From the IMG/VR virus record IMGVR_UViG_2861084961_000001: DNA of 64,000 nucleotides, one strand, 5' to 3'. Made by a program: the position numbers and the translations under genes. The stretch is from a virus. Its lineage: Duplodnaviria; Heunggongvirae; Uroviricota; Caudoviricetes. The notes under the pieces are model-generated. The model worked only from the letters and a program-made list of their open reading frames with translations, made no database searches and was not told where the DNA came from. This document shows, in pieces, positions 9,336 to 48,833 of this stretch (position 1 is its first letter; each line of letters starts with the position of its first letter).

Positions 9336-10111
9336 AAATACAATAATAAGTATTTACTTACTTATCTTTTATGTATAAGATGACTTTGTTTTCGTTGAGA
9401 CGCGACTGTTTGAACTTAAATACAAGTGCAAACGAAGAAGTCTATCTGGCAGTAGCCTAATAAGCCAAACACCAGCGAGGTCAGTTTCCAGCCTCGTTAC
9501 CGAAATGGGACACACTGAGCGAGTGTGATTGCAGAACGCAGGAGGGAACATTCATGTTCCCTCCGATGAAGTAACAGAATGGGCGGTTGGTATATTTTCA
9601 ACTCCATATGACTCCCGGATTCTTAGCCACTGACCGCCCATCCTGTTACGTCATTTTGTTCAATTATGTCGTTTATACTGGGTTAAAAAGCGGCGACGTA
9701 GCCCGGCTGGTATGGTTAGCCAGCACACAACGTTGAGGCCATTACATTTTTATCAATTCTAAGGTTCTATTCACAGAGATACCGGCGAGCGTTGATATGT
9801 AACATGTTGGGCAAACATTCAATCGGAGTAGTGGCCTCAACGTTGTGAAGACAGGATTGTTGTGTAGGTTTAACCACTGTTGCCATTGGTGCCTGTTTTC
9901 ACAACAAATGATTCCATACATCACATTGTATAAATAACAAAGTAGGTGCTGTCCTCAGAAACATCATCTACTTAAAGATTTAGCCTTCTATTGAGCGAAG
10001 TCGAAAGCGTCTGGCACTAACGTAAAGTGCAAGTAGCGGTGCGTTTCCTGGCAGAAACTAACACCGCCGCGATTGGCACTGTTGAGTAATAAATACTGTC
10101 AGTGCTGAATT

Positions 10112-16534: not shown

Positions 16535-16629
16535 TTAGAACAGCCTTAATGATAAGTAATCACTTACGTTATTTGATGGTATATTTATATAAGAAGTTGA
16601 AAGCTCATTAGAAAACAAAGGAAAAACGC

Positions 16630-24534: not shown

Positions 24535-25608
24535 ATGGCAAAAGGAAAATCCGCACTGGCACTTGCTCTGAAAAAGAAAATCGGTAGCAACGACGAAATT
24601 CAGAAAGTAACTCATTGGATTGACACAGGCTTTCCTCCGTTAAACAAAGCTATTTCCGGTCGTTACGATGGCGGTTTCCCATGTGGTCGTATCGTCGAAG
24701 TATTCGGGCCGCCAAGCGCGGGGAAAACTTTTTTGGCAACGGCAGCAATGATCTCCGCTCAGAAACAAGATGGCCTGGCGGTATTCCTCGATCATGAGAA
24801 CAGTTTTGACGTTGGCCTGGCTGTCGCCAATGGTCTGAACGCAGATGAGGATGACGGCCAGTGGGTATACAAGCAGCCTGATACCTTCGAAGACTCTGTA
24901 GAGTTGATCGGCACAATACTTAAATTGGTACGTGATGAAGAGCTTATCCCTGAATCAGCACCTATCTGTATCGTGGCTGACTCACTTGCGTCTATGGTTC
25001 CGAACTCCAAAGCCGAGAAGTTCGAAAAGATGGCTGAAGGCACTGCCAAAGACAAAGATCAGCTAAACATGAACGACAATACGGCGCTGGCTCGTGCAAC
25101 GAGTGCGAACTTCCCCACTCTGGCTTTGTGGGCACGCAAATACAACGCCTGCATCATCTTCTTGAATCAGGTTCGCACAAAAATCGGTGTAATGTTTGGC
25201 GACCCTACTACGTCACCAGGCGGCGATTCACCGAAGTTTTACGCTTCTGTGCGCATCCGTCTCGGTGCATCGGTGATGAAGGATGGTAAAGAGAAGATCG
25301 GTCAGGACGTAGGCGCAGAGTGCATCAAAAACAAAGTTGCACCACCGTATGGCAAATGCACCTGGAAATTCTACTTCGATCCTACTCGTGGCCTCGACGT
25401 TATCGAGTCGCTCGTCGAGTACATGCTGGAAGAAGGATACCTGCCAAAGAACGCCAGCGGTCGAGTAGAAATTGGTGACAAGAAATACACCAAATCACAG
25501 ATCGTCGAGATGTATCGGGAGAAGCCACTAGCTGAAATCATTGCAGCTTTACAGGCAATCGACGACCGGAGAGCAAAAGATACCCCCACCGAGTCAGTAG
25601 AAGGGTAA
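24535..25608 (+). CDS. RecA/UvsX-like recombinase
   Basis: GRIVEVFGPPSAGKTFLA Walker A in RecA core context; 357 aa. Confidence 0.85.
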   Translation: MAKGKSALALALKKKIGSNDEIQKVTHWIDTGFPPLNKAISGRYDGGFPCGRIVEVFGPPSAGKTFLATAAMISAQKQDGLAVFLDHENSFDVGLAVANGLNADEDDGQWVYKQPDTFEDSVELIGTILKLVRDEELIPESAPICIVADSLASMVPNSKAEKFEKMAEGTAKDKDQLNMNDNTALARATSANFPTLALWARKYNACIIFLNQVRTKIGVMFGDPTTSPGGDSPKFYASVRIRLGASVMKDGKEKIGQDVGAECIKNKVAPPYGKCTWKFYFDPTRGLDVIESLVEYMLEEGYLPKNASGRVEIGDKKYTKSQIVEMYREKPLAEIIAALQAIDDRRAKDTPTESVEG

Positions 25609-25636: not shown

Positions 25637-25700
25637 TATCTCTTGAAAATATATAAGTACTTACTTATTATTTTCGCATAACAACCACATAGGAAAACAC

Positions 25701-35436: not shown

Positions 35437-37346
35437 AGTTTTTAAAACTCCAGGTTGAGAATTTTATGGCTATCGCCAGCGCGGAGGTCGAGTTAGATCA
35501 GCGTGGTTTAGTGCTAATTCAGGGCATTAATAGTGATGATAGTTCCGCATCAAGTAATGGCTCTGGAAAGTCAACTCTAATGAATAGCCTGATGTGGTGT
35601 CTTTATGGCGAAACAGCTCATGGTGTGAAGGGTGACGATGTGTTGTCTACCGACCATGAAAAGAACTGTCGTGTTGCAGTAACCATCGAGGATGAAGGCA
35701 AGAGATATGCGATCATTCGTCACCGTAACACAAAGAGTTCAAAAATCGTCTTATCGTTCGTGGTGAAGATGGCGATATGACGAAAGGCAAAGATGCGCTG
35801 ACGCAGGAGTTCGTCGAGCGTCTGATCGGTGCATCTAAAGAGGTTTTCATGGCTTCCATCTATGCGAGCCAAGAAGCTATGCCAGATCTACCTGGAATGT
35901 CCGACAAAAACCTCAAAACCATCGTAGAAGAAGCCGCTGGCGTTGACAGACTGACACGCGCCTACGCTATTGCTCGTGAACGAGCTAACGCAGCTGCCGC
36001 ACGCATGGACGTGGTTAAAACCAAATTGGAGTCGACAATCTCGACCATTGAGGCAACACAGTCAGAAATTGAGTCCGCGAAAGCCTCCTCTGAATCATGG
36101 GAACAAGAGCGTTCTAAACGTTATGACGATGCCCTAGCTGGGCTGGCAAGTGCCGAAGTTGAGTTAACGGAAGTTGAACTTGAGATCCGCACTCTTCCCG
36201 AACAGATCCGTGATACCGAGAAGGCAATCGAAAGTGAGCGCAAAAAGTTAGCCTCAAAAGAAGAACATGATGCCAAGTTGCTCAAAGTGCGTGGTGCGAT
36301 AACTGATATTCGGGCAAGCATCAAAGCTACAGAAATAGTCAGGCTGATGCAATGAGCCGCGCGCGCAATTTTAAGACCAAAGCAGAAGAGGTTGGTACTA
36401 AAGTAGGATCACCATGCCCTACTTGTGGCAAAGCCTACTGCGAAGAAGATCTATCAACGGTGAAGGAGAATTTCATTGAACAAGCACGTCAGGAAATTGG
36501 TCAGGCGAAGACACTTGCAGAGGCAATGGCTAAACACAAAACGAATCTTGAGAAGGCGTTAAGCATTGAGTCTGCCCTTGTTAAAACGACACCTGATGTA
36601 ACGGCTATCATTGCCCGGATTGAAGAGCTTACTAAACAACTTTCATCTTTGCGTCATCGTGAGAAGGAGGTTGTTGCTATTGAGTCTCTTGTGACTCGTG
36701 CTCGTACTGAGGTCGATCGTATATCAAAAGAGATTAATCCGTTTATTGCTCTTATCGCCAGACACGAAGATAACCTGGTATCCAGTAAGTCTACCTTCAA
36801 GTCCTTAAAAGATGAGTTGAAGGCTATTCAGGAACAAACGTTGCTATTGGAAAAAGCTCGTCAGGTCTACTCTCCTGCCGGGGTGCGTTCTCATATTTTG
36901 ACGTCTGTTACGCCTTTCCTGAATACACGCACTGCCGAGTATCTCAATACGTTGTCTGACGGGAATATTACTGCTGAGTGGTCGACGATGGATGTCACTA
37001 AAAAGGTGAGTATCGCGACAAATTCAACATTAGTGTGCAGAAGAAAGGTTCAAGTAAGTCGTTCCAAACCCTCTCTGGTGGTGAGAAGCGGAAGGTTCGC
37101 ATTGCGTGTTCTTTGGCATTGCAGGATCTGGTTAGTAACCGGGCGAGTAAAAACATCGATTTGTTTATCGGCGACGAAATTGACGATGCACTCGATACAG
37201 CCGGTCTTGAACGCCTCATGGGTATTCTGGAGTCCAAAGCTCGCGAGCGAGGTACTGTGCTGATTATCTCCCATAAAGAGATGAAGTCATGGTTCCGGGA
37301 AACTATTACGCTGGAAGTTAAAGAGGGGCGCAGCTATGTCGTTTAA
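35433..37346 (+). CDS. SbcC/Rad50-like ATPase, split into 4 frames by -1 shifts
   Basis: Walker A GSGKST, coiled-coil, zinc-hook CPTCGK, ABC signature LSGGEKR, D-loop DLFIGDEIDDALD across ORFs 35433, 35777, 36352, 37035. Confidence 0.7.
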
Positions 37347-38654: not shown

Positions 38655-38688
38655 TTTCATTGATAGGTAAGTGCTTATCTATTAACAT

Positions 38689-38720
38689 GGGCCACTATAT
38701 TTAGTGGCCCTCTTTATTTG
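38689..38720 (+). terminator. Terminator hairpin gggccactatatttagtggccc + T-rich
   Basis: 7 bp GC stem, followed by tctttattt. Confidence 0.6.
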
Positions 38721-38727
38721 GTGATAC

Positions 38728-41043
38728 ATGATAAGCATCGTAAAACGTAACGGCCAAACAGAGCCGTTATCCGAAGAAAAATACAACCGCGTCGTAATGT
38801 ATGGCGTAGAAGGCATTCGTGGTGTAAGCGCATCCGCTGTAGCAATGGGAGCTGCGGCCAGCATTTTTGATGGGATTACCACCAGCCAGTTGCATGAGGC
38901 TTTGGTTAAATCTGCCGCTGATTTGATCTCACCAGATGCACCAAATTACTCACAGGTGGCTGCCCGCCTGAACATTTTTAAAATCCGCAAAGATGCCTTC
39001 GGTCGTTACGACTATCCGAACTTCTACCAACACATTGTCAAGAACGTTAACAAGGGCGTTTATGACAAGGATTTGCTGACACATTATTCGTTTGAAGAGA
39101 TCGAAGAACTCGGCAATTACATTAAGCCTAAACGTGACGATCTTTTTGGCTATGCAGCTACGGTGCAATTGCAAAGCAAATACCTCGTTCAAAACCGTGT
39201 TACTGGTGAGATTCATGAGGGGCCGCAACATATCTATATGCTGGTAGGCATGTGTCTGTTCCAGAATTGGGAAGACGACTGCGCTGGCAAAACACGTATG
39301 GAGATGGTCAAAGGTTTCTATGACGTTACAAGTACGTTCAAACTGTCTCTGCCCACACCAATCATGGCCGGCGTCCGTACTCCAACCCGTCAGTTCTCCA
39401 GTTGTGTGCTGATTGAGTCTGGCGATAGTCTGAAAGGGATTAGCGCAGCTTCAGCCGCAATTATCGACTACGTTTCACGTCGTGCTGGAATTGGTATTGG
39501 TTTTGGCCGTATCCGTGCGCTGGGCAGTGAGATCCGCAATGGTGAAGCCACCCATACCGGAGTTATTCCATTCCTGAAGCATTTCCAGACGGCTGTTAAA
39601 TCTTGCTCGCAAGGTGGTGTCCGTGGTGGCGCAGCAACAGCGTTTTACCCGATTTGGCATCTTGAAGTTGAAAGTCTGCTGGTGGTGAAAAATAACCGTG
39701 GTATCGATGAAAACCGCGTTCGCCATCTTGATTACGGTGTCATGAGTAACCGTCTGATGTACCGTCGACTCGTCAGAAGCGAGAACATCACTCTGTTCAG
39801 CCCGCATGATGTGCCTGATATGTACGAAGCCTTCTTCACAGACCAGGATCTGTTTGAAAAGCTGTACCATAAATACGAAGCCGATGATTCAATTCGCAAG
39901 AAGTCAGTGCCTGCCATTGAGCTGTTCTCATCTCTGATGCAGGAACGAGCGTCCACGGGCCGAATTTATATTGCGAACGTCGATCATATTAACGAGCATG
40001 GCGCTTTCATTCCTGCTCTTGCACCTGTCCGCCAGTCAAACCTGTGTATGGAGATCACCCTACCCACCCGTCCACTGACATTTACCGACGACCCGAACGG
40101 TGAGATCGCGCTTTGCACTTTATCCGCTTTTAACCTCGGAGCCATCCGTTCACTGGAGTCTCTTAAAGAGGTGGCGTTCTATGCCGTCGCTGCACTGGAT
40201 TCGTTACTGGATTATCAAGACTATCCGATGGAGGCAGCCGAAGTGCCTGCCAAAGCTCGTCGTAGCCTGGGAATCGGTGTAACCAACTTTGCTTATTACC
40301 TGGCAAAGAATGGCGTTCGTTATTCTGATACCGCTGGCAATAAACTGGTGCATGAAACGTTCGAAGCTATCCAGTATTACCTTCTCGATGCCAGCTGCCA
40401 ACTTGCTGAAGCTAAAGGTGAGTGTGACTGGTTTGAGCAGACCAAATACGCAATTGGTCAGTTGCCGATCGACCATTACCGTTCTTCATTAGACGAAAGT
40501 GGTGAAACCAACTTTGAGTTAAAGATGCCGTGGGAAGAACTGCGTGAACGTATTGCAAAATTCGGTCTTCGCAACTCCACACTGACGGCACAAATGCCAT
40601 GCGAGACTTCCAGCCAGATCACTAATTCCACCAACGGCATCGAACCGCCTCGTGGACCGGTGTCGGTGAAATCTTCTAAGGACGGCATCGTTAAGATGGT
40701 CGTGCCTGAGTTTGAAAAACTGAAGGAACAGTATGAATACCTGTGGGATATGCCGGACAACCGCGGCTATCTGACAAAGGTGGCGATCATCCAGAAGTTC
40801 TTTGACCAGGCTATTTCAGCCAATACCAACTATGACCCTTCTCGCTTTGAAGGCGATAAAGTCCCAATGATGACGCTACTGTCAGATTTGCTTCTCGCCT
40901 ACAAGATGGGAGTTAAAACGCTTTACTACCACAACACCAGAGATGGGGCAGGAAAGCGTGATGACGACGAACCGCAGAATCCACTGACGCAAGCTGTAGC
41001 CGTCGAGCCAGAAGATGAGTGCGACGGAGCCTGCAAAATCTGA
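38728..41043 (+). CDS. nrdA: Ribonucleotide reductase class Ia large subunit NrdA (T4-like)
   Basis: 771 aa intact ORF; N-terminal ATP cone; TPIMAGVRTPTRQFSSCVLIESGDSLKGI and NLCMEI, CETSSQITNSTNGIEPPRGP active-site regions closely match T4/E. coli NrdA. Confidence 0.95.
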   Translation: MISIVKRNGQTEPLSEEKYNRVVMYGVEGIRGVSASAVAMGAAASIFDGITTSQLHEALVKSAADLISPDAPNYSQVAARLNIFKIRKDAFGRYDYPNFYQHIVKNVNKGVYDKDLLTHYSFEEIEELGNYIKPKRDDLFGYAATVQLQSKYLVQNRVTGEIHEGPQHIYMLVGMCLFQNWEDDCAGKTRMEMVKGFYDVTSTFKLSLPTPIMAGVRTPTRQFSSCVLIESGDSLKGISAASAAIIDYVSRRAGIGIGFGRIRALGSEIRNGEATHTGVIPFLKHFQTAVKSCSQGGVRGGAATAFYPIWHLEVESLLVVKNNRGIDENRVRHLDYGVMSNRLMYRRLVRSENITLFSPHDVPDMYEAFFTDQDLFEKLYHKYEADDSIRKKSVPAIELFSSLMQERASTGRIYIANVDHINEHGAFIPALAPVRQSNLCMEITLPTRPLTFTDDPNGEIALCTLSAFNLGAIRSLESLKEVAFYAVAALDSLLDYQDYPMEAAEVPAKARRSLGIGVTNFAYYLAKNGVRYSDTAGNKLVHETFEAIQYYLLDASCQLAEAKGECDWFEQTKYAIGQLPIDHYRSSLDESGETNFELKMPWEELRERIAKFGLRNSTLTAQMPCETSSQITNSTNGIEPPRGPVSVKSSKDGIVKMVVPEFEKLKEQYEYLWDMPDNRGYLTKVAIIQKFFDQAISANTNYDPSRFEGDKVPMMTLLSDLLLAYKMGVKTLYYHNTRDGAGKRDDDEPQNPLTQAVAVEPEDECDGACKI

Positions 41044-41147
41044 CATATGGTGGGGGGTATCCCACCTTCTCTTTGATTTGTAAGCCTTGTTTAAACAAAT
41101 AAGATAACAACTTGTTTAAACACATCAAAAAGCAAAAGGAAAAACAC

Positions 41148-42290
41148 ATGTCATATTCAACGTTCCGTTTGGGTGCTAATGATGCAACCAAAGAGCCTAT
41201 GTTCCTCGGACAATCTGTCAACGTGGCACGTTACGATCAGCAAAAATACCGTGATTTTGAAAAGTTGATTGAACGTCAATTGTCTTTCTTCTGGCGGCCG
41301 GAAGAAGTTGATATTTCGAGCGATCGTATCGACTTCAACACGAAGCTGCGGGACCACGAACGTCACATTTTTCTGAGCAATCTCCGTTATCAAACGTTAC
41401 TCGATTCAGTTCAGGGACGTAGCCCAAATGCAACGTTGCTGCCGCTTATCTCTATTCCTGAACTGGAAACGTGGGTTGAAACATGGTCTTTCTCTGAGAC
41501 TATCCATAGCCGCAGCTACACCCACATTATTCGTGGCATGGTGGACGATCCGAGCATTGTTTTTGACGGTATTGTTACGGATGAAGAAATCATCAACCGA
41601 GCGATCAGTATCTCTGCTGAATATGACAGGCTTTATGGGATGACCTGCGAGCGCCAGTCGTTAGGTGAGAAGGAGTTTGAACGTCTGTACGTAAATGAAT
41701 ATGGCTGGGAGCCATACCCTTTGCACCGTCAGCTTTTCCGCACGTTGGTGTCCATTAATGCGCTTGAGGCGATCCGTTTCTATGTAAGTTTTGCATGTAC
41801 GTTTGCCTTTGGCGAACGGAAGTTGCTTGAGGGTAACACCAAAATTATGCGCTTTATTGCCCGTGATGAAGCTCTGCATTGCGAAGGAACTGAACGCATG
41901 ATCCGCTTCATGCGTACCGGTCGCGAAGGTTTATTGTGGAAAGAGATTGCTGCTGATGAAGAAAATGTCATTTACGACACCATGAAATCAGTCGCCGAAC
42001 AAGAAATGAACTGGGCAGACTATCTCTTCAAAGACGGTTCGATGATTGGTTTAAACGCGGATATTCTGAAGACCTATGTAAAATACCGCACCAATCTGGC
42101 TATGAATCGTCTTGGCCTGAAGGCTTTATTTCCAGAGGTTACCACCGATCCGCTGATCTGGATGAACAAGTGGTTGTTAACCGACACACTGCAAATTGCA
42201 CCACAAGAGGCAGAGCAAAGCACATATCTGGTAGGTCAGATCGATTCTACCGTGGATAAGGCTTCTCTAAGCCAGTTTGCTGACCTGTAA
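41148..42290 (+). CDS. nrdB: Ribonucleotide reductase small subunit NrdB
   Basis: [22 protein letters not shown]-terminus like E. coli NrdB; di-iron motifs in EAIRFYVSF and RDEALHCEG; start at ATG 41148 after conserved AAAGGAAAAACACATG. Confidence 0.9.
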
Positions 42291-42367
42291 ACCGATACAA
42301 AGCATTATGTGGCCTGGCAACGCTGGGCCACAATGGATCACAAGAATTAAGAAGGAACAAAACTAGC

Positions 42368-43237
42368 ATGAACTTTACCAAACTGACTGACCACCTGAAA
42401 CTTGCCACCGATCGACTCATTGGATTTAAACCAGAACCATATGAGTTGCATGAAGGTCATGGTGTAGCTACTGAAAGTATTTACAAGATGGTCGATCAGT
42501 TTCATGAACTCTTCCAGCATCCGAGACGCGTTATGCCGACACCAGAGCTGCTTCGTCTCCGTGCAAGCCTGATTCATGAAGAAGCTGTAGTGGAAGGTAT
42601 TCCAGCCGCAATGAATGGGGATATTGAGCAACTGCTGGATGCAATGGCCGACTTTTTATACGTTGGTGTTGGTACGATGGTCGCCATCAAAGGTGGTATT
42701 TCTACCGGCATGACCTATTACACGCAGGAACAGAGCATTGATCGCTTTATGCAGACAATTTTTGTGCCTGGTAACACTGTTTTCGATGATATGGCAATGC
42801 CATTTCAGGAAGCTCGTGAGGCGTCATGTATGCTCGAAGAGCTGGCAGATAAACTTGAGAACAAGACTGTTAAGGATTCTGAGCTGATTCAGGAACTGCG
42901 CCGTGTCATGAACAAAATCTATGTGGCGTGCATGATGACCTATCGACTGGCTGATTTCCTCGGTATCAATGTCGTCGAGCTGGTTGGCGAAATTCATCGG
43001 TCCAACATGACAAAATTATGGCCTGCAGATGCCGAAGAGCGTCGCCATGCTGTGGCCAACTGCAAATACGACTCTTCTGACCTGGGATTTCGCCATGCTG
43101 ATGGCACCGATAAGATGATCGGTTTTCGAATTTCCGATGGAAAAATTCTGAAGTCTCCAACCTATAGTGATGTCGATTTATCCTCCTTTGTTGAGCAAGC
43201 TAAAGCCTCAGCAATGTACGGAATGATCAAAAAATAA
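42368..43237 (+). CDS. MazG-like all-alpha NTP pyrophosphohydrolase candidate (dCTPase/dUTPase-like)
   Basis: LIHEEAVVEGIPAAMNGDIEQLLDAMADFLYV resembles MazG EExxE...D motif; location inside nucleotide-metabolism block. Confidence 0.4.
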   Translation: MNFTKLTDHLKLATDRLIGFKPEPYELHEGHGVATESIYKMVDQFHELFQHPRRVMPTPELLRLRASLIHEEAVVEGIPAAMNGDIEQLLDAMADFLYVGVGTMVAIKGGISTGMTYYTQEQSIDRFMQTIFVPGNTVFDDMAMPFQEAREASCMLEELADKLENKTVKDSELIQELRRVMNKIYVACMMTYRLADFLGINVVELVGEIHRSNMTKLWPADAEERRHAVANCKYDSSDLGFRHADGTDKMIGFRISDGKILKSPTYSDVDLSSFVEQAKASAMYGMIKK

Positions 43238-43306
43238 TTGTAGGTAGTTATCTATCTATGTATATTGTGTCGGCGCGTTAAATTTCTGAAACAACTATCC
43301 GTTTTT

Positions 43307-43331
43307 GGTGGCCTATGGCCACCATTTTTTT
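43307..43331 (+). terminator. Terminator hairpin ggtggcctatggccacc + T7
   Basis: 7 bp GC stem, tat loop, tttttttt. Confidence 0.75.
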
Positions 43332-43408
43332 ATCTATCTGGTCTTGTTCTCTCAATAAATGTAAACTCACACGATGAATAAGTAATTACTTATCTCTGTG
43401 AGGTTTTT

Positions 43409-44511
43409 GTGTCACTCCTTTTGAATCGTGAGCATACGAACGGTCAGGTAACAAACGCATCGTATGCAAAAGTTATTGAGACGGTGCTTAAAGCGGCGTG
43501 CAGGCTGATGATCGCACAGGCACTGGTACTTTAAGCACCTGCTACGTTCCCTCTTACTACATGCTTACTGGTGGGACTGTGCCGCTTATTTCTGGAAAGG
43601 CGGTAAATCTTAAGCCACTACTTGTCGAACTTGAGTGGTATCTGAAAGGCACGGGTAACATCCAATTTCTCAAGGATAACGGCGTGAAGATTTGGGACGC
43701 ATGGGCCGATGAGAATGGTGATTTGGGGCCGGTTTACGGCAAGCAGTGGCGTCGCTGGGAAGATACCCGCATCGTGAGCCATAGTGAGTATCTGAGCAAG
43801 ATCGATACGTTCCGTGAACGCGGGTACAAAGTCGAGGGATACCTGGGTATCAGTGAAGATCGCGTAGTGCTGTCCCGTGAAATCGATCAGCTACAGCGTA
43901 TTGTCGATACACTGCGCACGAACCCTACCGATCGTCGCATCATGCTTAACGCATGGAACGTAGGCGAGCTTGAGGATATGAAACTGCCACCTTGCCACTT
44001 TGTCTTCTCTTTGTGGAGTCGTGAGCTTGATTTTGAAACCCGTTTAACGATGGCAACTGACATTGGTCTTCAACACAGTCGCCTCGGTTACGAGTCTATC
44101 TATACCAAGATGCTATACGATCTGGAGATGGTCGGCAGTGTTACTGAAACTGAACTGGATGAACTTGGAATCCCCAAACGCATCCTCAACTCCTGCCTCG
44201 TACAGCGTAGCGTAGACACTTTTGTTGGTATGCCATTCAATATTGCTGGTTATGGCATTCTCACTCATTTTCTCGCGAAGATTACGGGTCACATGGCCGG
44301 TGCCTTTGTGCATTTTGGCTTTGACGTGCATTTGTACAACAACCACATGGAAGGTGTGTGTGAGCTAATGAAACGACAGGCTCCAGAGCATTCAGATCCG
44401 GTCGTTATTTTCCCTCATGAATGGTCAGAGTTGGATGATTTCAAATGGGACGAGGTTCTAATTCTTGGCTATGCCCCTCTACCGTGGATCAAGGTTCCAG
44501 TGGCGGTGTGA
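43409..44511 (+). CDS. thyA: Thymidylate synthase (ThyA-type) with two internal insertions; N-terminal frame break at A-run 43490-43492, start uncertain
   Basis: DRTGTGTLS, WDAWADENGDLGPVYGKQWR, catalytic LPPCHF, PFNIAGY (Asn retained); adding one A at 43490-43492 joins VIETVLK to SGVQADDRTGTGT. Confidence 0.8.
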
Positions 44512-44512
44512 T

Positions 44513-44926
44513 ATGGCAAGAGGTATGTATGTCTTATGCGAAATTGAAGGTGTGCTGGCAAATACCAGCCATCGTAAATCTGTATCTGACGCGGATGCAG
44601 GCCAGCTCATTGCCGGTGATGAACTCATTTTCCCCACCAGCCGTATGTTGCGTGGTTTTGCTCGCTCAGGGGCTGAAGTGGTGCTTATCAGTAGCCGCTC
44701 TGAAACTCTTGAAGCGCCCACTAAACGATGGCTGAAAGATTTTGGTGTTGATTACGACTGGCTTCATCTCGTACCGAATGGCATCAGTTATGAGAAGCAT
44801 ATTAAGCGCACATTAGCGGAGCATAAAGGCGATCTGCTTATCGCTGCGCTGGTGCACGATCCTCGACTCCGTGCCGCTTTAGCTGACTCTCATCATAGAC
44901 CGGTCATCTATGAGGTGGGCAAATGA
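44513..44926 (+). CDS. HAD-like hydrolase fold protein (possible deoxyribonucleotidase) with E-for-D substitutions in motif I
   Basis: YVLCEIEGVLAN in place of canonical DxDGVL; VVLISSRSE motif II-like. Confidence 0.35.
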   Translation: MARGMYVLCEIEGVLANTSHRKSVSDADAGQLIAGDELIFPTSRMLRGFARSGAEVVLISSRSETLEAPTKRWLKDFGVDYDWLHLVPNGISYEKHIKRTLAEHKGDLLIAALVHDPRLRAALADSHHRPVIYEVGK

Positions 44927-45398
44927 AGATGATAGCTGCTGTTGGCCGTAACTATGAGATCGGCATAGCGAACGAACTGCCCTGGCGTTGTTCTACCGAT
45001 CTGAAGCTATTTAAGAGACTCACCAAAAACGCCACTGTCGTTATGGGCGTAAAACGATGGAAAGTCTCAAACGTCCTCTTCCAGAGCGTCATAACCTCGT
45101 TTTGACGCGCTCTCATGGCTTTGTACCAAATGGATTCTACCCTGCTGGTGTGGATGATGTGTTGCGATTACCAGAGCCTGTGTGGGTGATTGGCGGGGAA
45201 CAAATTTACTCGCTATTCATGCCGCATGTTGAAGAGATTTGGCTCTCCCACATCGGCGTTGATGTACCAAACGCTGATGCATTCTTCCCGGCAAGCATGA
45301 TGCGTAACTTAGGCTTTGTGCCTGTTGAAACAGCTTATACCCAACGAGCCAGCGAGGAAGAGCCTGGCTTTTCGCAGATCGTATACAGAAGGTCGTAA
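44923..45398 (+). CDS. folA: Dihydrofolate reductase, frame broken at A-run 45051-45054
   Basis: MIAAVGRNYEIGIANELPW and VMGVK...ESLKRPLPERHNLVLT, VWVIGGEQIY match DHFR; adding one A restores GVKTMESLKRPLPER. Confidence 0.8.
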
Positions 45399-46041
45399 TG
45401 GATTACCGGATTGGGATCACTGGTGCTCAGGGCAGTGGGAAAACAACCCTGGCTAAATATATCGACAAACATTACGGAATCCCTTACGTGGATGCTGGTG
45501 TCGGAAGTTTGATGAGCCGCCTCGGTGTTCGAGTAGGTGAGTCTATGCCTCTATATGAGCGGCTTCAGATTCAAATGGAAATAGCAAAGCATATAGAGCT
45601 ACTTACGCGTGGTGTTGAAGGCTTTGTTATCGATCGCACACCTGCTGATGTTATGGCCTACACGTTGGATTTGGTCGGTCATACCAATGAAGATCGGTGT
45701 ATTGAGTTAGCCCTCGATATCGAAAAGTTTTGCCACAAAACTGCTATTTCAAACTTTAACGCCATTGCTGGCCTACGCCCGGAGTCGCTCTCACAGAGCG
45801 AGATTACTTGCGATCACAACGAGCATCATTAGACCGTCTGTATGTTGCTCGTATTGATGCGTTGATGTGCGGGGAACTGACAAAAATTCACCTGCATCCG
45901 CAAAGGGGAGATCTGCAAACCTTCGTCGTTTCCAACCGATATCGCACGGTTGAAGCAAGAGCCAGATCAGTGATGAGAATGCTAGATAACGCTGTAGAAA
46001 AGATAGAAAACCGGTTCTGTGGCCGAGTGACCGTTCATTAG
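45398..46041 (+). CDS. P-loop kinase (dNMP kinase-like candidate), frame break near 45810
   Basis: Walker A GITGAQGSGKTTLA; two ORFs in -1 relation. Confidence 0.5.
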
Positions 46042-46102: not shown

Positions 46103-46522
46103 ATGTTTAGTGAAATGTTGCTTGAAGATGAACTGGATCGGAAAACAACAGAGGCTTTGATTCGTGTAGCGGACGAACATTCCCGGTCGCTTATGACCGA
46201 TCGAGAGGCTCGTCTGGCTATTCGAGCCATATTCGAAACTGCGCAGGGGCTTGTTGGCGCACAAGTAGGTGAAGCCATTAACATCGCCATGTCTCAGTTC
46301 AGTGAAGGCAGTAAAAAGCCTCTGTTTCCTATGCATTTGATGCTGGCTGGTGGCACGGTGCTTTATATCTCTGTTTGTCTGGATAGCAACCAAATCAACA
46401 TTCTCAACACAGCATCAGGTAAGTGGAAAGATCCGATTGTCTGTGAAACCAGTGAAGAAACTTTGAAAAAAGCGGCTCAATTTGTACGTAGCGCACTACT
46501 TAAGGGCGCTAAGAAGTTGTAA
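46103..46522 (+). CDS. Hypothetical protein (139 aa)
   Basis: ORF with RBS-like AAGGATAAAAA upstream. Confidence 0.45.
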   Translation: MFSEMLLEDELDRKTTEALIRVADEHSRSLMTDREARLAIRAIFETAQGLVGAQVGEAINIAMSQFSEGSKKPLFPMHLMLAGGTVLYISVCLDSNQINILNTASGKWKDPIVCETSEETLKKAAQFVRSALLKGAKKL

Positions 46523-46531
46523 GGAGTTCTG

Positions 46532-47088
46532 ATGACAACGATTGTTGCAGGCATCGATATCGAGTCTACGGGACTGGATTTCCTTGCTGGTCATAAAATT
46601 ATTGAAATCGCAATTACCCGCTATGAACTGGAGACACAGAGACATATTGATAGTCTGGAGATGCGTTTTAACCCTCGCAGAAACATAGATCCGAAAGCTC
46701 AAGCCGTTCATGGCATTTCATTGGAACAGCTCGCAGCTGAACCTTTGTTGTCAAATCATGCCAGCGAAATTGGCGCTTATATGGGGGCATGTAGTGCGTG
46801 GATTGCTCATAACGGCGAAGCGTTTGATATACCATTTATTCGACACGAGTTTTCAGGGTATGGAGTAAGACTGCCAGACGTTCCTGTTATAGATACTATG
46901 TTATCGGGATTGTGGCCACAGAAGACGGTAAACGTCCCCGCCTTGAAGAGTTGGCCTTCTCTCTTGGCTTTATATACGATCATGCCAAAGCACATAGTGC
47001 CTTATATGACACAAACTTAATGATGCAATGCTTCTTTAAGGCACGTAATAAGTACGGATTTTTTAAATTACCCTCTGAAATTGTGTAA
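46532..47088 (+). CDS. DnaQ-like 3'-5' exonuclease (DEDDh), frame break near 46940-46960
   Basis: Exo I GIDIESTGLD, Exo II HNGEAFDIPFI, and Exo III HSALYDTNLM in the -1 frame downstream of a cccc run. Confidence 0.65.
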
Positions 47089-47248
47089 AGCAAAAGCCTA
47101 CTTTAAAGAGAGTTTAAAGTAGGCTTTCTTTTAAAGAACAGTCGCCTTTCAATCATTTCCTGCCTGTATTTAATACTTTTCCGCCTGATAGGTTTAGTCA
47201 AAATATAGCCATCGAAACGCAAATGTAACCAAACAGAAGGAGACTTAC

Positions 47249-48057
47249 ATGAGTTCGGTTGAAAATGTAATGACAAATGATGATCTGGACGAACTGACAG
47301 CTATGTTGCAATCACTTGATGAACCGGTAAAAAAAGCTGCACAGGTTGAGAATACTGATGATATTGACGATCTGCTTCTAGGCCTCGATGCTGGCGTAGC
47401 CATGAGTTCTGATGATGTTGCCGAAGAACTGTTCAATGAAGAAAAAGCAGGTGATTTTAGCTCCGCTTTAAATGAGTTGGAGTTAGCGCATGAGCCTATA
47501 AACGTAATTAACGCTGAAAGTGGTGAAGCTGCCGAAAATGAGCCAGAACAGTTGGGGATCATTGAGGTTGAAGAGTGTGTTGAGGTTAATGATGAATTAA
47601 AAGTTCAACAGTCAAATGATAGCAATACAAATAAAAAGCTCGTGCTGCAAGAGGTCCTCGTTTTACTTTAAGTGATAAAGATGATTCGTTTTTCAATAAA
47701 GCAGGCTTAGAAAAAGATATTTTCTTAGACGCTTATGAAAACGCGCCTGTCAAAGCGAAGGATAAGATATTAAACCTTCTTAATTGGTTTAGCGGAGGTC
47801 CAGATATTAGTGTTTACACGGTAATTTCCATGAGACACCTTCTCACAGAAAAGAAGGCTACAAGTAATAGTATTAAGATTGCTTTAATGAGCAATCCAGA
47901 AAAACCGTATCCGCTTAACACTGCGTCAACTCAGGCTGGGCAAATGATGGCTGTATTTCCAGCTACAGGAATTGCCGTTAGAGACGGTGGAAATCTAACA
48001 TTGAACGAAGAATCACCGATCGTTAAGAAGTTTGTCGCGGAGTACACTATTGGATGA
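47249..48057 (+). CDS. Highly acidic N-terminal protein (DNA-mimic-like anti-restriction candidate), frame break near 47650
   Basis: N-terminal 130 aa rich in D/E; C-terminal part continues in -1 frame; sits immediately upstream of orphan methyltransferase. Confidence 0.4.
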
Positions 48058-48227
48058 CGTTCCCCTACTGAAAATAAAGCCCATAGAGAGCTTTATAGTG
48101 CTGGGTAAGCTAACCCATACCCAGCACCACAAAAACGCGCCAGAGAGCTTCTTGTTCGCATTTCTGGCGCGTTTTATTTGATTGCCATACATAAAATCAA
48201 ATGCAAAAATAGGTAATCACTTACCTA

Positions 48228-48833
48228 TTGAGAAAGAAGATGATTGCAGCCGAAAAAATCAAACAGCGAAAGCGCGACAACTCTCTTCGTGACCTCTGGA
48301 GAACACCTGATTGGCTGTTTTCTGCCATTCAACGTTATCTTGGGGTGACATTTGATGTTGACGTTGCCTGCAACAAGGACAATGCAAAGCTGCCTAATTT
48401 CATAGGCGTTGAGCGTGATGCTTTGAAATCTGAATGGGGACAGCCAGGTACAATTGCCTTCCTCAATCCACCCTACTCCAAAATCTCCCCCTGGATTGAT
48501 GCTGCTATACGTGAGCAGGCTCGCGGAGTTACAACAGTGATGCTAATTCCTCAATCCCTCGATACAAAGTGGTATGAGCGTGCAACAGAGTATGCGAATG
48601 AGACGATTATTCTGTCTGGTGGCCGCGTAGCGTTTGTCGAGCCTGACGTCAATTTGGGTCAGGTAGAAGTAAACATCAACCCCGGTGGCAGTATGCTCGT
48701 TGTTTTTCGAGGATTCTGTCAGGACGCTGGGCACTCTATAAGCAAGATCCCTTTGGACGTAATGAAAAGTCTGGGAGGGTATGATCCTGCGAATGTGGTC
48801 AGGAAAAAAAGACCATCAAAGAAGGCTGCTTAG
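48228..48833 (+). CDS. Phage-type DNA N6-adenine methyltransferase (orphan)
   Basis: Catalytic motif FLNPPYS; ~200 aa; no adjacent restriction endonuclease. Confidence 0.7.
   Translation: MRKKMIAAEKIKQRKRDNSLRDLWRTPDWLFSAIQRYLGVTFDVDVACNKDNAKLPNFIGVERDALKSEWGQPGTIAFLNPPYSKISPWIDAAIREQARGVTTVMLIPQSLDTKWYERATEYANETIILSGGRVAFVEPDVNLGQVEVNINPGGSMLVVFRGFCQDAGHSISKIPLDVMKSLGGYDPANVVRKKRPSKKAA

Follow-up and report, generated by a model that had tools for sequence, protein, structure and literature searches.

A probable deoxynucleotide-supply module with a predicted thymidylate synthase and a DfrA51-type dihydrofolate reductase in an SSU5-type phage-plasmid

We analysed a 64,000-nucleotide stretch of viral DNA (Caudoviricetes; IMG/VR record IMGVR_UViG_2861084961_000001), here called the window at its full length, and examined a block of nucleotide-metabolism genes at positions 38728-46041. 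At the DNA level this block is 98% identical, over its full length, to Escherichia phage Cyrano (the pLF82 phage-plasmid), CMS-2020a and PhiR41_1, and 77% identical to Salmonella phage SSU5. The open reading frame (ORF) listing and Pfam matches place seven contiguous genes there, all on the + strand, in the order nrdA, nrdB, MazG-like gene, thyA, HAD-like gene, dihydrofolate reductase (DHFR) gene and P-loop kinase gene. An earlier note made from the letters of this DNA had reported the same contiguous block, and it stands at these coordinates and on this strand with the gene models corrected as follows (aa, amino acids).

38728-41043, + strand: nrdA, large subunit of a class Ia ribonucleotide reductase (RNR), 771 aa, with an ATP-cone (Pfam Ribonuc_red_lgC at 437 bits, Ribonuc_red_lgN and ATP-cone)
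41148-42290, + strand: nrdB, RNR small subunit, 380 aa (Pfam Ribonuc_red_sm at 157.8 bits; start taken from the Cyrano and SSU5 annotation)
42368-43237, + strand: MazG-like all-alpha nucleoside triphosphate (NTP) pyrophosphohydrolase, 289 aa (Pfam PRA-PH at 35.6 bits, cutoff 21.3)
43409-44511, + strand: thyA, predicted thymidylate synthase (TS), GTG start, 367 aa with one A restored after 43489; frameshifted as read
44513-44926, + strand: degenerate HAD protein with the PNKP 3'-phosphatase fold, 137 aa, motif I reading E-I-E-G-V
44923-45398, + strand: DHFR, predicted DfrA51 type, 158 aa with one G restored after 45044; frameshifted as read
45398-46041, + strand: P-loop small-molecule kinase-like protein (AAA_28), 214 aa with one G restored after 45780; frameshifted as read

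The region is very likely a conserved deoxynucleotide-supply module of an SSU5-type phage-plasmid, which probably boosts the deoxynucleoside triphosphates (dNTPs), above all dTTP, for the element's own replication. The Cyrano and SSU5 records annotate the identical seven genes in identical order and orientation. The labels used in the records of the relatives are two RNR subunits, a nucleotide pyrophosphohydrolase, a thymidylate synthase, a small hypothetical protein or 'polynucleotide kinase', a dihydrofolate reductase and an AAA/P-loop protein. Two labels of the Cyrano record OV696614 differ from our assignments: the ThyA-family gene (L001 8683-9786) is called 'ThyX Thymidylate synthase', whereas we assign it to ThyA (PF00303), and the AAA_28 kinase-like gene (L001 10674-11318) is called 'ABC transporter ATP-binding protein', whereas we assign it to AAA_28. 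The gene order also persists in more distant relatives, in which the HAD-like protein shares about 26-35% identity with that of the window. Comparison of the window with SSU5 revealed purifying selection on all seven genes and on two insertions within ThyA, with proportions of 0.02-0.13 for non-synonymous differences (pN) and 0.5-0.85 for synonymous differences (pS); selection is expressed as pN and pS, without dN/dS ratios, because synonymous sites are saturated between the two elements. Around the block, the Cyrano annotation lists a helicase, primase, ligase, Pol III alpha, SSB, RecA, UvsY, SbcCD and glutaredoxin, which make up a self-sufficient replication and recombination set. SSU5-type phage-plasmids thus carry this block as a known and annotated module, which is for the most part ordinary and present in databases.

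The window copy alone, compared with the module in Cyrano and SSU5, carries one-base homopolymer deletions that break the thyA, DHFR and kinase genes. Between 35000 and 48000 we found 15 one-base indels relative to Cyrano, 14 of which are deletions in the window, all within homopolymer runs of at least three bases. Compared with Cyrano and PhiR41_1, the deletions lie at 35728, 36335, 37004, 37582, 38099, 38121, 38344, 41060, 41126, 43489, 45044, 45780, 46913 and 47632. A wider comparison with Cyrano gave 20 one-base deletions in 15.3 kb (16 of the 20 in runs of at least three), and comparable indels occur elsewhere in the window. Each of the three module genes is split by a single deletion, after 43489, 45044 and 45780, respectively. 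Because of the first of these, the ThyA ORF of the supplied list (GTG at 43498) is 30 codons short at its N-terminus; in the DHFR gene the missing base is a G of the G run at 45044, and the copies in Cyrano, PhiR41_1 and SSU5 are intact. Restoring one base per site yielded full-length proteins collinear with those of Cyrano and SSU5, and the protein analyses below were run on these repaired proteins or on the 98%-identical database representative P0001. The seven genes of the earlier note hold, although it had missed the three splits, which were found by alignment to Cyrano.

The frameshifts are most likely assembly homopolymer errors, judging from the sequence comparison, because the deletions lie in homopolymers and are absent from Cyrano and because comparable indels occur elsewhere in the window. 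Taken together, they resemble errors of uncorrected long-read or flow-based sequencing rather than gene decay. It is improbable, in our judgement, that the frameshifts are real and that thyA, DHFR and kinase are pseudogenes of a module decaying during plasmid-like carriage. The three genes are indeed interrupted as read, and in a lysogenic state host enzymes could make them dispensable. Yet the same one-base homopolymer deletions strike sbcC three times (leaving three ORFs), the RuvC-like and epsilon-like exonuclease genes and intergenic DNA, and substitutions within thyA, DHFR and kinase are under strong purifying selection.

We next consider the enzymes one by one. The repaired ThyA scored 217.6 bits against the NCBIfam equivalog TIGR03284 (cutoff 108.35), and even the N-terminally short ORF matched Pfam PF00303 at 249 bits. 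With E. coli ThyA it shares 118 identities over 261 aligned positions (45% over aligned columns, E-value 5e-63), arranged in three collinear blocks: residues 18-118 correspond to E. coli 3-102, 156-203 to 106-153 and 261-367 to 160-264. Relative to the E. coli enzyme, the window protein adds a 15-residue N-terminal extension and insertions of 37 and 57 aa. The residues for catalysis and dUMP binding are in place, namely C196 (E. coli C146), R36 (R21), R176/R177 (R126'/R127'), R267 (R166) and S268 (S167), together with the uracil- and deoxyribose-site residues N278 (N177, the Asn of PFNIAGY), H308 (H207) and Y310 (Y209). The catalytic Cys, the dUMP cage and the N/H/Y residues were invariant or nearly so in alignments of 24 and 60 sequences; the earlier note had read off the catalytic Cys and the Asn. 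The residues for folate binding and hydride transfer are likewise present: E74 (E58), I95 (I79), W96 (W80), W99 (W83), Y110 (Y94), H197 (H147), Q266 (Q165), D270 (D169), F277 (F176) and the C-terminal PVAV367. E. coli K48, D110 and L143 are retained as well. An AlphaFold2 (AF2) model built from 60 sequences had a mean predicted local distance difference test score (pLDDT) of 94.7 and matched E. coli ThyA with a Foldseek TM-score of 0.94 normalised to the target; the two share their C-terminal tail and all the residues for catalysis and for binding dUMP and folate. On this evidence from sequence and model, we assign the protein as a bona fide thymidylate synthase (EC 2.1.1.45). The TIGR03284 match and the residue table (22 homologues plus T4 gp42 and SPO1 gp29) thus support the first choice of the earlier note, a genuine thymidylate synthase cycle with the adjacent DHFR.

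The DHFR turned out to be more than supporting context for that cycle. The repaired protein scored 338.2 bits against NCBIfam NF047324 (DfrA51; cutoff 322) and is identical to SSU5 DfrA51 (AFL47010.1) at 143 of 158 positions (91%, 15 substitutions), which identifies it, by sequence, as the known trimethoprim-resistance type DfrA51. The SSU5 protein has been characterised: when cloned, it raised the trimethoprim minimum inhibitory concentration to 256-512 mg/L, and its trimethoprim binding is about ten times weaker than that of E. coli DHFR (Wang et al. 2025, PMC12217456). Its gene occupies the same genomic position as the window DHFR gene, and the resistance figures belong to the SSU5 allele only. 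Thus the earlier note was right to take the DHFR as support for the thymidylate synthase cycle, and NF047324 and PMC12217456 add that it is a characterised resistance type. A resistance DHFR of the DfrA51 type will be found in any assembly from this family of phage-plasmids, embedded in a nucleotide-metabolism operon of ordinary appearance, and resistance-gene screens can overlook it where such an assembly contains homopolymer errors. Because the window gene is frameshifted as read, it could escape a screen that relies on an uninterrupted ORF.

The remaining enzymes were assigned with differing firmness. For NrdAB, the Pfam matches comprise the domains of class Ia enzymes (ATP-cone, all-alpha and barrel domains in the large subunit, and a ferritin-like small subunit). 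For the MazG-like protein, a five-sequence profile matched Deinococcus radiodurans DR2231, a MazG-like enzyme that is described as able to cleave dUTP (PMC5122711), with an E-value of 3.8e-6 in three collinear segments separated by inserts. The match covered the whole domain, including the EE, DxxxD-LYV, H-SN-K and DGK-LK motifs, and E71, E72, E76, D91 and D95 are invariant acidic residues of the window family. Compared with DR2231 (about 140-154 aa), the 289-aa window protein has an insert of about 90 aa and a second, shorter one. We also observed that the MazG-like inserts, like those of ThyA, decorate the family domain, and that both are kept across divergent relatives. The P-loop protein matched Pfam AAA_28 at 38.3 bits (cutoff 27) and phrog_2107, 'thymidylate kinase', at 2.3e-10; its invariant residues are GxQGxGKTT, DRTP, R139, R142 and D146.

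The fifth gene of the block encodes a stand-alone 137-aa protein that belongs to phrog_5387, where no function is assigned. Its match to Pfam HAD_PNKP was weak, and a profile of 18 relatives aligned with the phosphatase domain of Capnocytophaga Pnkp1 (4XRP) with an E-value of 6.8e-6, placing VLCEI[DE]GVL on VICDLDGTL. The Rossmannoid HAD fold is thus recovered, and the Glu that the earlier note had seen at both Asp positions of motif I (CEIEGVL) does sit on the DxDGT of PNKP-type enzymes. Where an Asp nucleophile and an Asp general acid belong, the protein reads E10-I-E12-G-V, and in place of the Mg2+-binding DD of motif IV it has H115-D116 (CS, RT, TT, RS or AS in the subfamily). An exhaustive profile search returned 267 relatives. 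Among the 181 that could be aligned, the two motif I positions are D,D in 122, E,E in 29 and E,D in 11, and three more have A,D, T,D and G,T; the E,E and E,D sequences form the SSU5-type subfamily. Two of the last three relatives were looked up (P0163 and P0164; the third is P0168), and both have the HAD-like gene in the same place. Even in the relatives with only about 26-35% identity, the HAD-like gene is always positioned between thyA and the DHFR gene, 1 nt away from its neighbours or overlapping them; its pN is 0.083 and its pS 0.63 between the window and SSU5.

Compared with the 3'-phosphatase domains of T4 Pnkp and Capnocytophaga Pnkp1, the window family has Glu for the nucleophilic Asp, either Glu or Asp for the second Asp and Val for the Thr; it has also lost the DD of motif IV, and no kinase domain is fused to it. 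The protein is probably not a phosphatase, because the nucleophile position is taken by Glu here and by Ala, Thr or Gly in the three other relatives named above and because the motif IV acids are lost. Most likely it is a conserved non-catalytic derivative of the 3'-phosphatase, serving as a binding or adaptor subunit, so that 'atypical accessory enzymes', a phrase of the earlier note, is fair for this member as a phosphatase degenerate by comparison. We consider it unlikely that the protein is an active phosphatase or nucleotidase with a Glu10 nucleophile, for example a dNMP or 3'-phosphate phosphatase tuning the pool, even though it has the fold of a PNKP 3'-phosphatase, carries Glu10 as an invariant residue throughout the aligned subfamily (E. 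coli, Salmonella and Klebsiella-type), retains further residues found family-wide (T42, S43, R44, S61, R62, Y81 and D82) and is encoded by a gene under purifying selection; the nucleophile substitutions and the loss of the motif IV acids speak against it.

A caveat of the earlier note was that ThyA might be a dUMP hydroxymethylase acting with a kinase in thymidine hypermodification. On this view the P-loop protein would phosphorylate 5-hydroxymethyldeoxyuridine in DNA, and the block would start such a pathway. Hydroxymethylases are indeed members of Pfam PF00303 too, and they retain the Cys and, in those acting on dUMP, the Asn. SPO1 gp29, at 383 aa, is similarly long, and in phages that hypermodify their DNA 5-HMUDK is associated with a dUMP hydroxymethyltransferase of the TS superfamily, with the glycosylase-fold aGPT-Pplase as a partner (PMC5889632). 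However, pairwise comparison gave only 19% identity to SPO1 gp29 (E-value 0.02) and 25% over 103 aa to T4 gp42 (E-value 5e-5), against 45% to the E. coli synthase. T4 gp42 and SPO1 gp29 differ from thymidylate synthases at W83, L143, H147, Q165 and F176 and both lack the PVA[IV] tail, whereas the window ThyA carries the synthase state at every one of these positions, tail included. This alignment at the hydride-transfer residues, with synthases and hydroxymethylases together, was the check that the earlier note had proposed, and it sides with the synthase throughout. Furthermore, the extra length of gp29 is a C-terminal extension and does not lie at the two ThyA insertion sites.

The kinase gave a similar answer. 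A tblastn search of 50,697 phage records returned 37 matches at E-values of 0.01 or below, none of them, at BLAST sensitivity, in the PhiW-14, SP10, ViI-like or M6-like phages, the groups defined by 5-HMUDK (PMC5889632). In the matching 65 kb of Cyrano no glycosylase-like, pyridoxal phosphate or radical S-adenosylmethionine gene is annotated, and neither is 5-HMUDK with its companion aGPT-Pplase, by annotation and without dedicated profiles. In addition, a DHFR alongside thyA is needed only if dihydrofolate (DHF) is produced. We therefore rejected the hydroxymethylase identity of ThyA, since pairwise identity and residue states favour the synthase over gp29 and gp42, and, at BLAST sensitivity, the 5-HMUDK identity of the kinase. 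Because of the synthase evidence, the negative kinase search and the adjacent DHFR, the hypermodification pathway is excluded for practical purposes, and we regard it as very improbable.

ThyA itself, the synthase by our assignment, is enlarged by two insertions, which the earlier note had estimated at about 40 and 50 aa and which measure 37 and 57 aa against E. coli ThyA.

43762-43872, + strand: ThyA insertion 1, residues 119-155, 37 aa, replacing the loop at E. coli residues 103-105
44017-44187, + strand: ThyA insertion 2, residues 204-260, 57 aa, replacing E. coli residues 154-159

In the AF2 model, insertion 1 is predicted to form a beta-hairpin stalk, two short helices and a third strand, the strands spanning residues 117-124, 141-146 and 152-159. 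Insertion 2 sits where the beta-hairpin after the catalytic Cys has its tip and is predicted to form three helices, and both belong to one fold with block-mean pLDDT of 94-98. The first site coincides with the position of the 8-residue insert of eukaryotic synthases, and neither site corresponds to the small-domain insert of L. casei. Between the window and SSU5, pN is 0.023 for insertion 1, 0.125 for insertion 2 (pS 0.85) and 0.065 for the ThyA core. Because non-synonymous change is low while synonymous sites are saturated, both insertions are functional parts of the protein. They recur at the same sites across a clade whose enzymes measure 350-378 aa and are encoded on contigs of roughly 100-120 kb from Escherichia, Salmonella, Klebsiella, Enterobacter, Raoultella, Providencia, Morganella and Xenorhabdus. 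By alignment, shorter or longer forms occupy the same two sites in 36-41%-identical metagenomic enzymes from 200-350 kb contigs. That the insertions are mobile or selfish (intein-like) elements or annotation or assembly artefacts is barely credible: they are large, sit at loop positions, and inteins do occur elsewhere in relatives of the element, for example in Cyrano RecA, but both are in frame, lack intein motifs, are found in every clade member down to about 36% identity (jumbo-phage enzymes included), are confidently predicted within one fold and are under purifying selection.

A Foldseek search of the PDB found no solved synthase covering the insertions, with a best query-normalised TM-score of 0.68-0.71. 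Predicted viral structures do cover the extra module, namely a 471-aa protein (query-normalised TM-score, TMq, 0.87) and the synthase of Pseudomonas phage 201phi2-1 (0.83). The likeness to the 201phi2-1 jumbo-phage synthase is structural, with the predicted structures spanning most of the window ThyA, including the extra module, at TMq 0.83-0.87. Jumbo-phage-type synthases otherwise differ from it in length (341-471 aa) and share 26-37% identity; that of the Erwinia jumbo phage vB_EamM_Caitlin, for example, has 343 aa and is 37% identical. The gene neighbourhood of Caitlin thyA differs as well: the gene directly downstream is unrelated to the HAD-like family, and scanning the neighbourhood (Pfam for the region, hhalign for the downstream gene, and BLASTP for an annotated pyrophosphatase) revealed no relation to the HAD-like or MazG-like proteins. 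In the literature on synthase insertions in phages or on pHCM2-type modules we found nothing specific. The insertions are predicted to fold into an additional surface module, distant in sequence from the catalytic residues, and they are a lineage trait that the jumbo-phage enzymes share.

Within the proposed deoxynucleotide-supply module, homology and residue checks support three steps. NrdAB, as a class Ia ribonucleotide reductase, would make deoxynucleoside diphosphates; ThyA would convert dUMP and methylenetetrahydrofolate to dTMP and DHF; and the DfrA51-type DHFR would regenerate tetrahydrofolate. Two further steps are suggested by weaker similarity and gene context. The DR2231-like MazG protein may hydrolyse dUTP (or dCTP) to the monophosphate, which would feed ThyA and keep uracil out of DNA, and the P-loop protein may be a nucleoside-monophosphate kinase, most plausibly acting on dTMP to give dTDP. 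The HAD-like protein would contribute as a non-catalytic binding or adaptor subunit.

Several points weigh against this scheme. The substrates of the MazG-like protein and of the kinase are guesses, the similarity to DR2231 being remote (profile E-value about 1e-6). The DR2231 metal ligand E79 aligns with an invariant Ala (A92) of the MazG-like protein, beside an invariant Asp, and the kinase resembles solved kinases (adenylate and dephospho-CoA) around the P-loop only. A Glu nucleophile might still be catalytically competent in the HAD-like protein. If the frameshifts were real, this copy would lack ThyA, DHFR and the kinase.

More speculatively, the ThyA module of about 95 aa, the MazG-like insert and the dead PNKP-fold protein might be docking parts of a complex synthesising dTMP and dNTPs, with the pseudo-phosphatase as an adaptor or nucleotide sensor. 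Such a complex would resemble fused DHFR-TS or the dNTP synthetase complex of T4; we hold it to be rather unlikely.

Our results remove the speculative base-modification reading of the block. DfrA51 is already characterised. The extra module of this phage-type synthase is shared by SSU5-like elements and jumbo phages but has no counterpart among solved structures, and the degenerate PNKP-fold protein persists between thyA and the DHFR gene under purifying selection.

Regulatory-looking sites were found upstream of nrdA and between the MazG-like gene and thyA.

38660-38710 (with hairpin), + strand: promoter-like site TTGATA-17-TAACAT upstream of nrdA
38689-38710: GC-clamped palindrome or hairpin GGGCCACTATATTTAGTGGCCC between the nrdA promoter-like site and the start, with an NrdR-box-like core
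43306-43331, + strand: terminator-like hairpin with a T7 run, 8-bp stem with 6 GC pairs, between the MazG-like gene and thyA (consensus match)
43379-43392, strand not assigned: perfect palindrome TAAGTAATTACTTA, 16 nt upstream of the thyA start

Upstream of nrdA, the stretch from -35 to -10 is conserved in Cyrano and SSU5 and partly in two divergent loci (L008 and L013), and GGGCCACTATATTTAGTGGCCC is conserved in Cyrano and SSU5 and not in these two loci. An NrdR box upstream of nrdA was considered and kept as a lead only: there is one site, it has 3 mismatches to the consensus, and at least one such match occurred in 58 of 100 shuffled sequences. Cyrano and SSU5 carry the palindrome TAAGTAATTACTTA as well, in the corresponding intergenic region. 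It belongs to a set of TAAGT-N(1-4)-ACTTA sites, five of which were found in the window where 0.26 would be expected (2274-2284, 9347-9360, 16553-16566, 25654-25667 and 43379-43392). Several of them lie in AT-rich stretches near promoter-like hexamers, and the one at 25654 follows a hairpin and T-run; a related imperfect palindrome (38666-38682) lies upstream of nrdA, flanked by the -35 and -10 hexamers of its promoter-like site. These palindromes may be putative operators of a common phage-plasmid regulator.

The terminator-like hairpin sets thyA, the HAD-like gene, DHFR and kinase apart from nrdA, nrdB and the MazG-like gene. Within the former group, thyA ends at 44511 and the HAD-like gene starts at 44513, the HAD-like and DHFR genes overlap at 44923-44926, and the DHFR and kinase genes meet at 45398. 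These genes lie 1 nt apart or overlap, and therefore the spacing suggests translational coupling among the four.

Beyond the block, synteny goes on downstream in all relatives examined (window 46103-48833).

46103-46522: conserved 139-aa protein with no Pfam match
46532-47088: DnaQ/RNase_T-type (epsilon-like) exonuclease, frameshifted after 46913
48228-48833: Dam-type methyltransferase

Elsewhere in the window, the RecA-like gene (24535-25608, 357 aa) lacks the intein of about 423 aa present in Cyrano RecA (L006 26066-28405). The Cyrano intein sits inside the P-loop (GPPSAGK|C...SHN|TFLAT) and contains a LAGLIDADG-like motif, LMGYLIADGY; the window therefore carries the intein-free allele.

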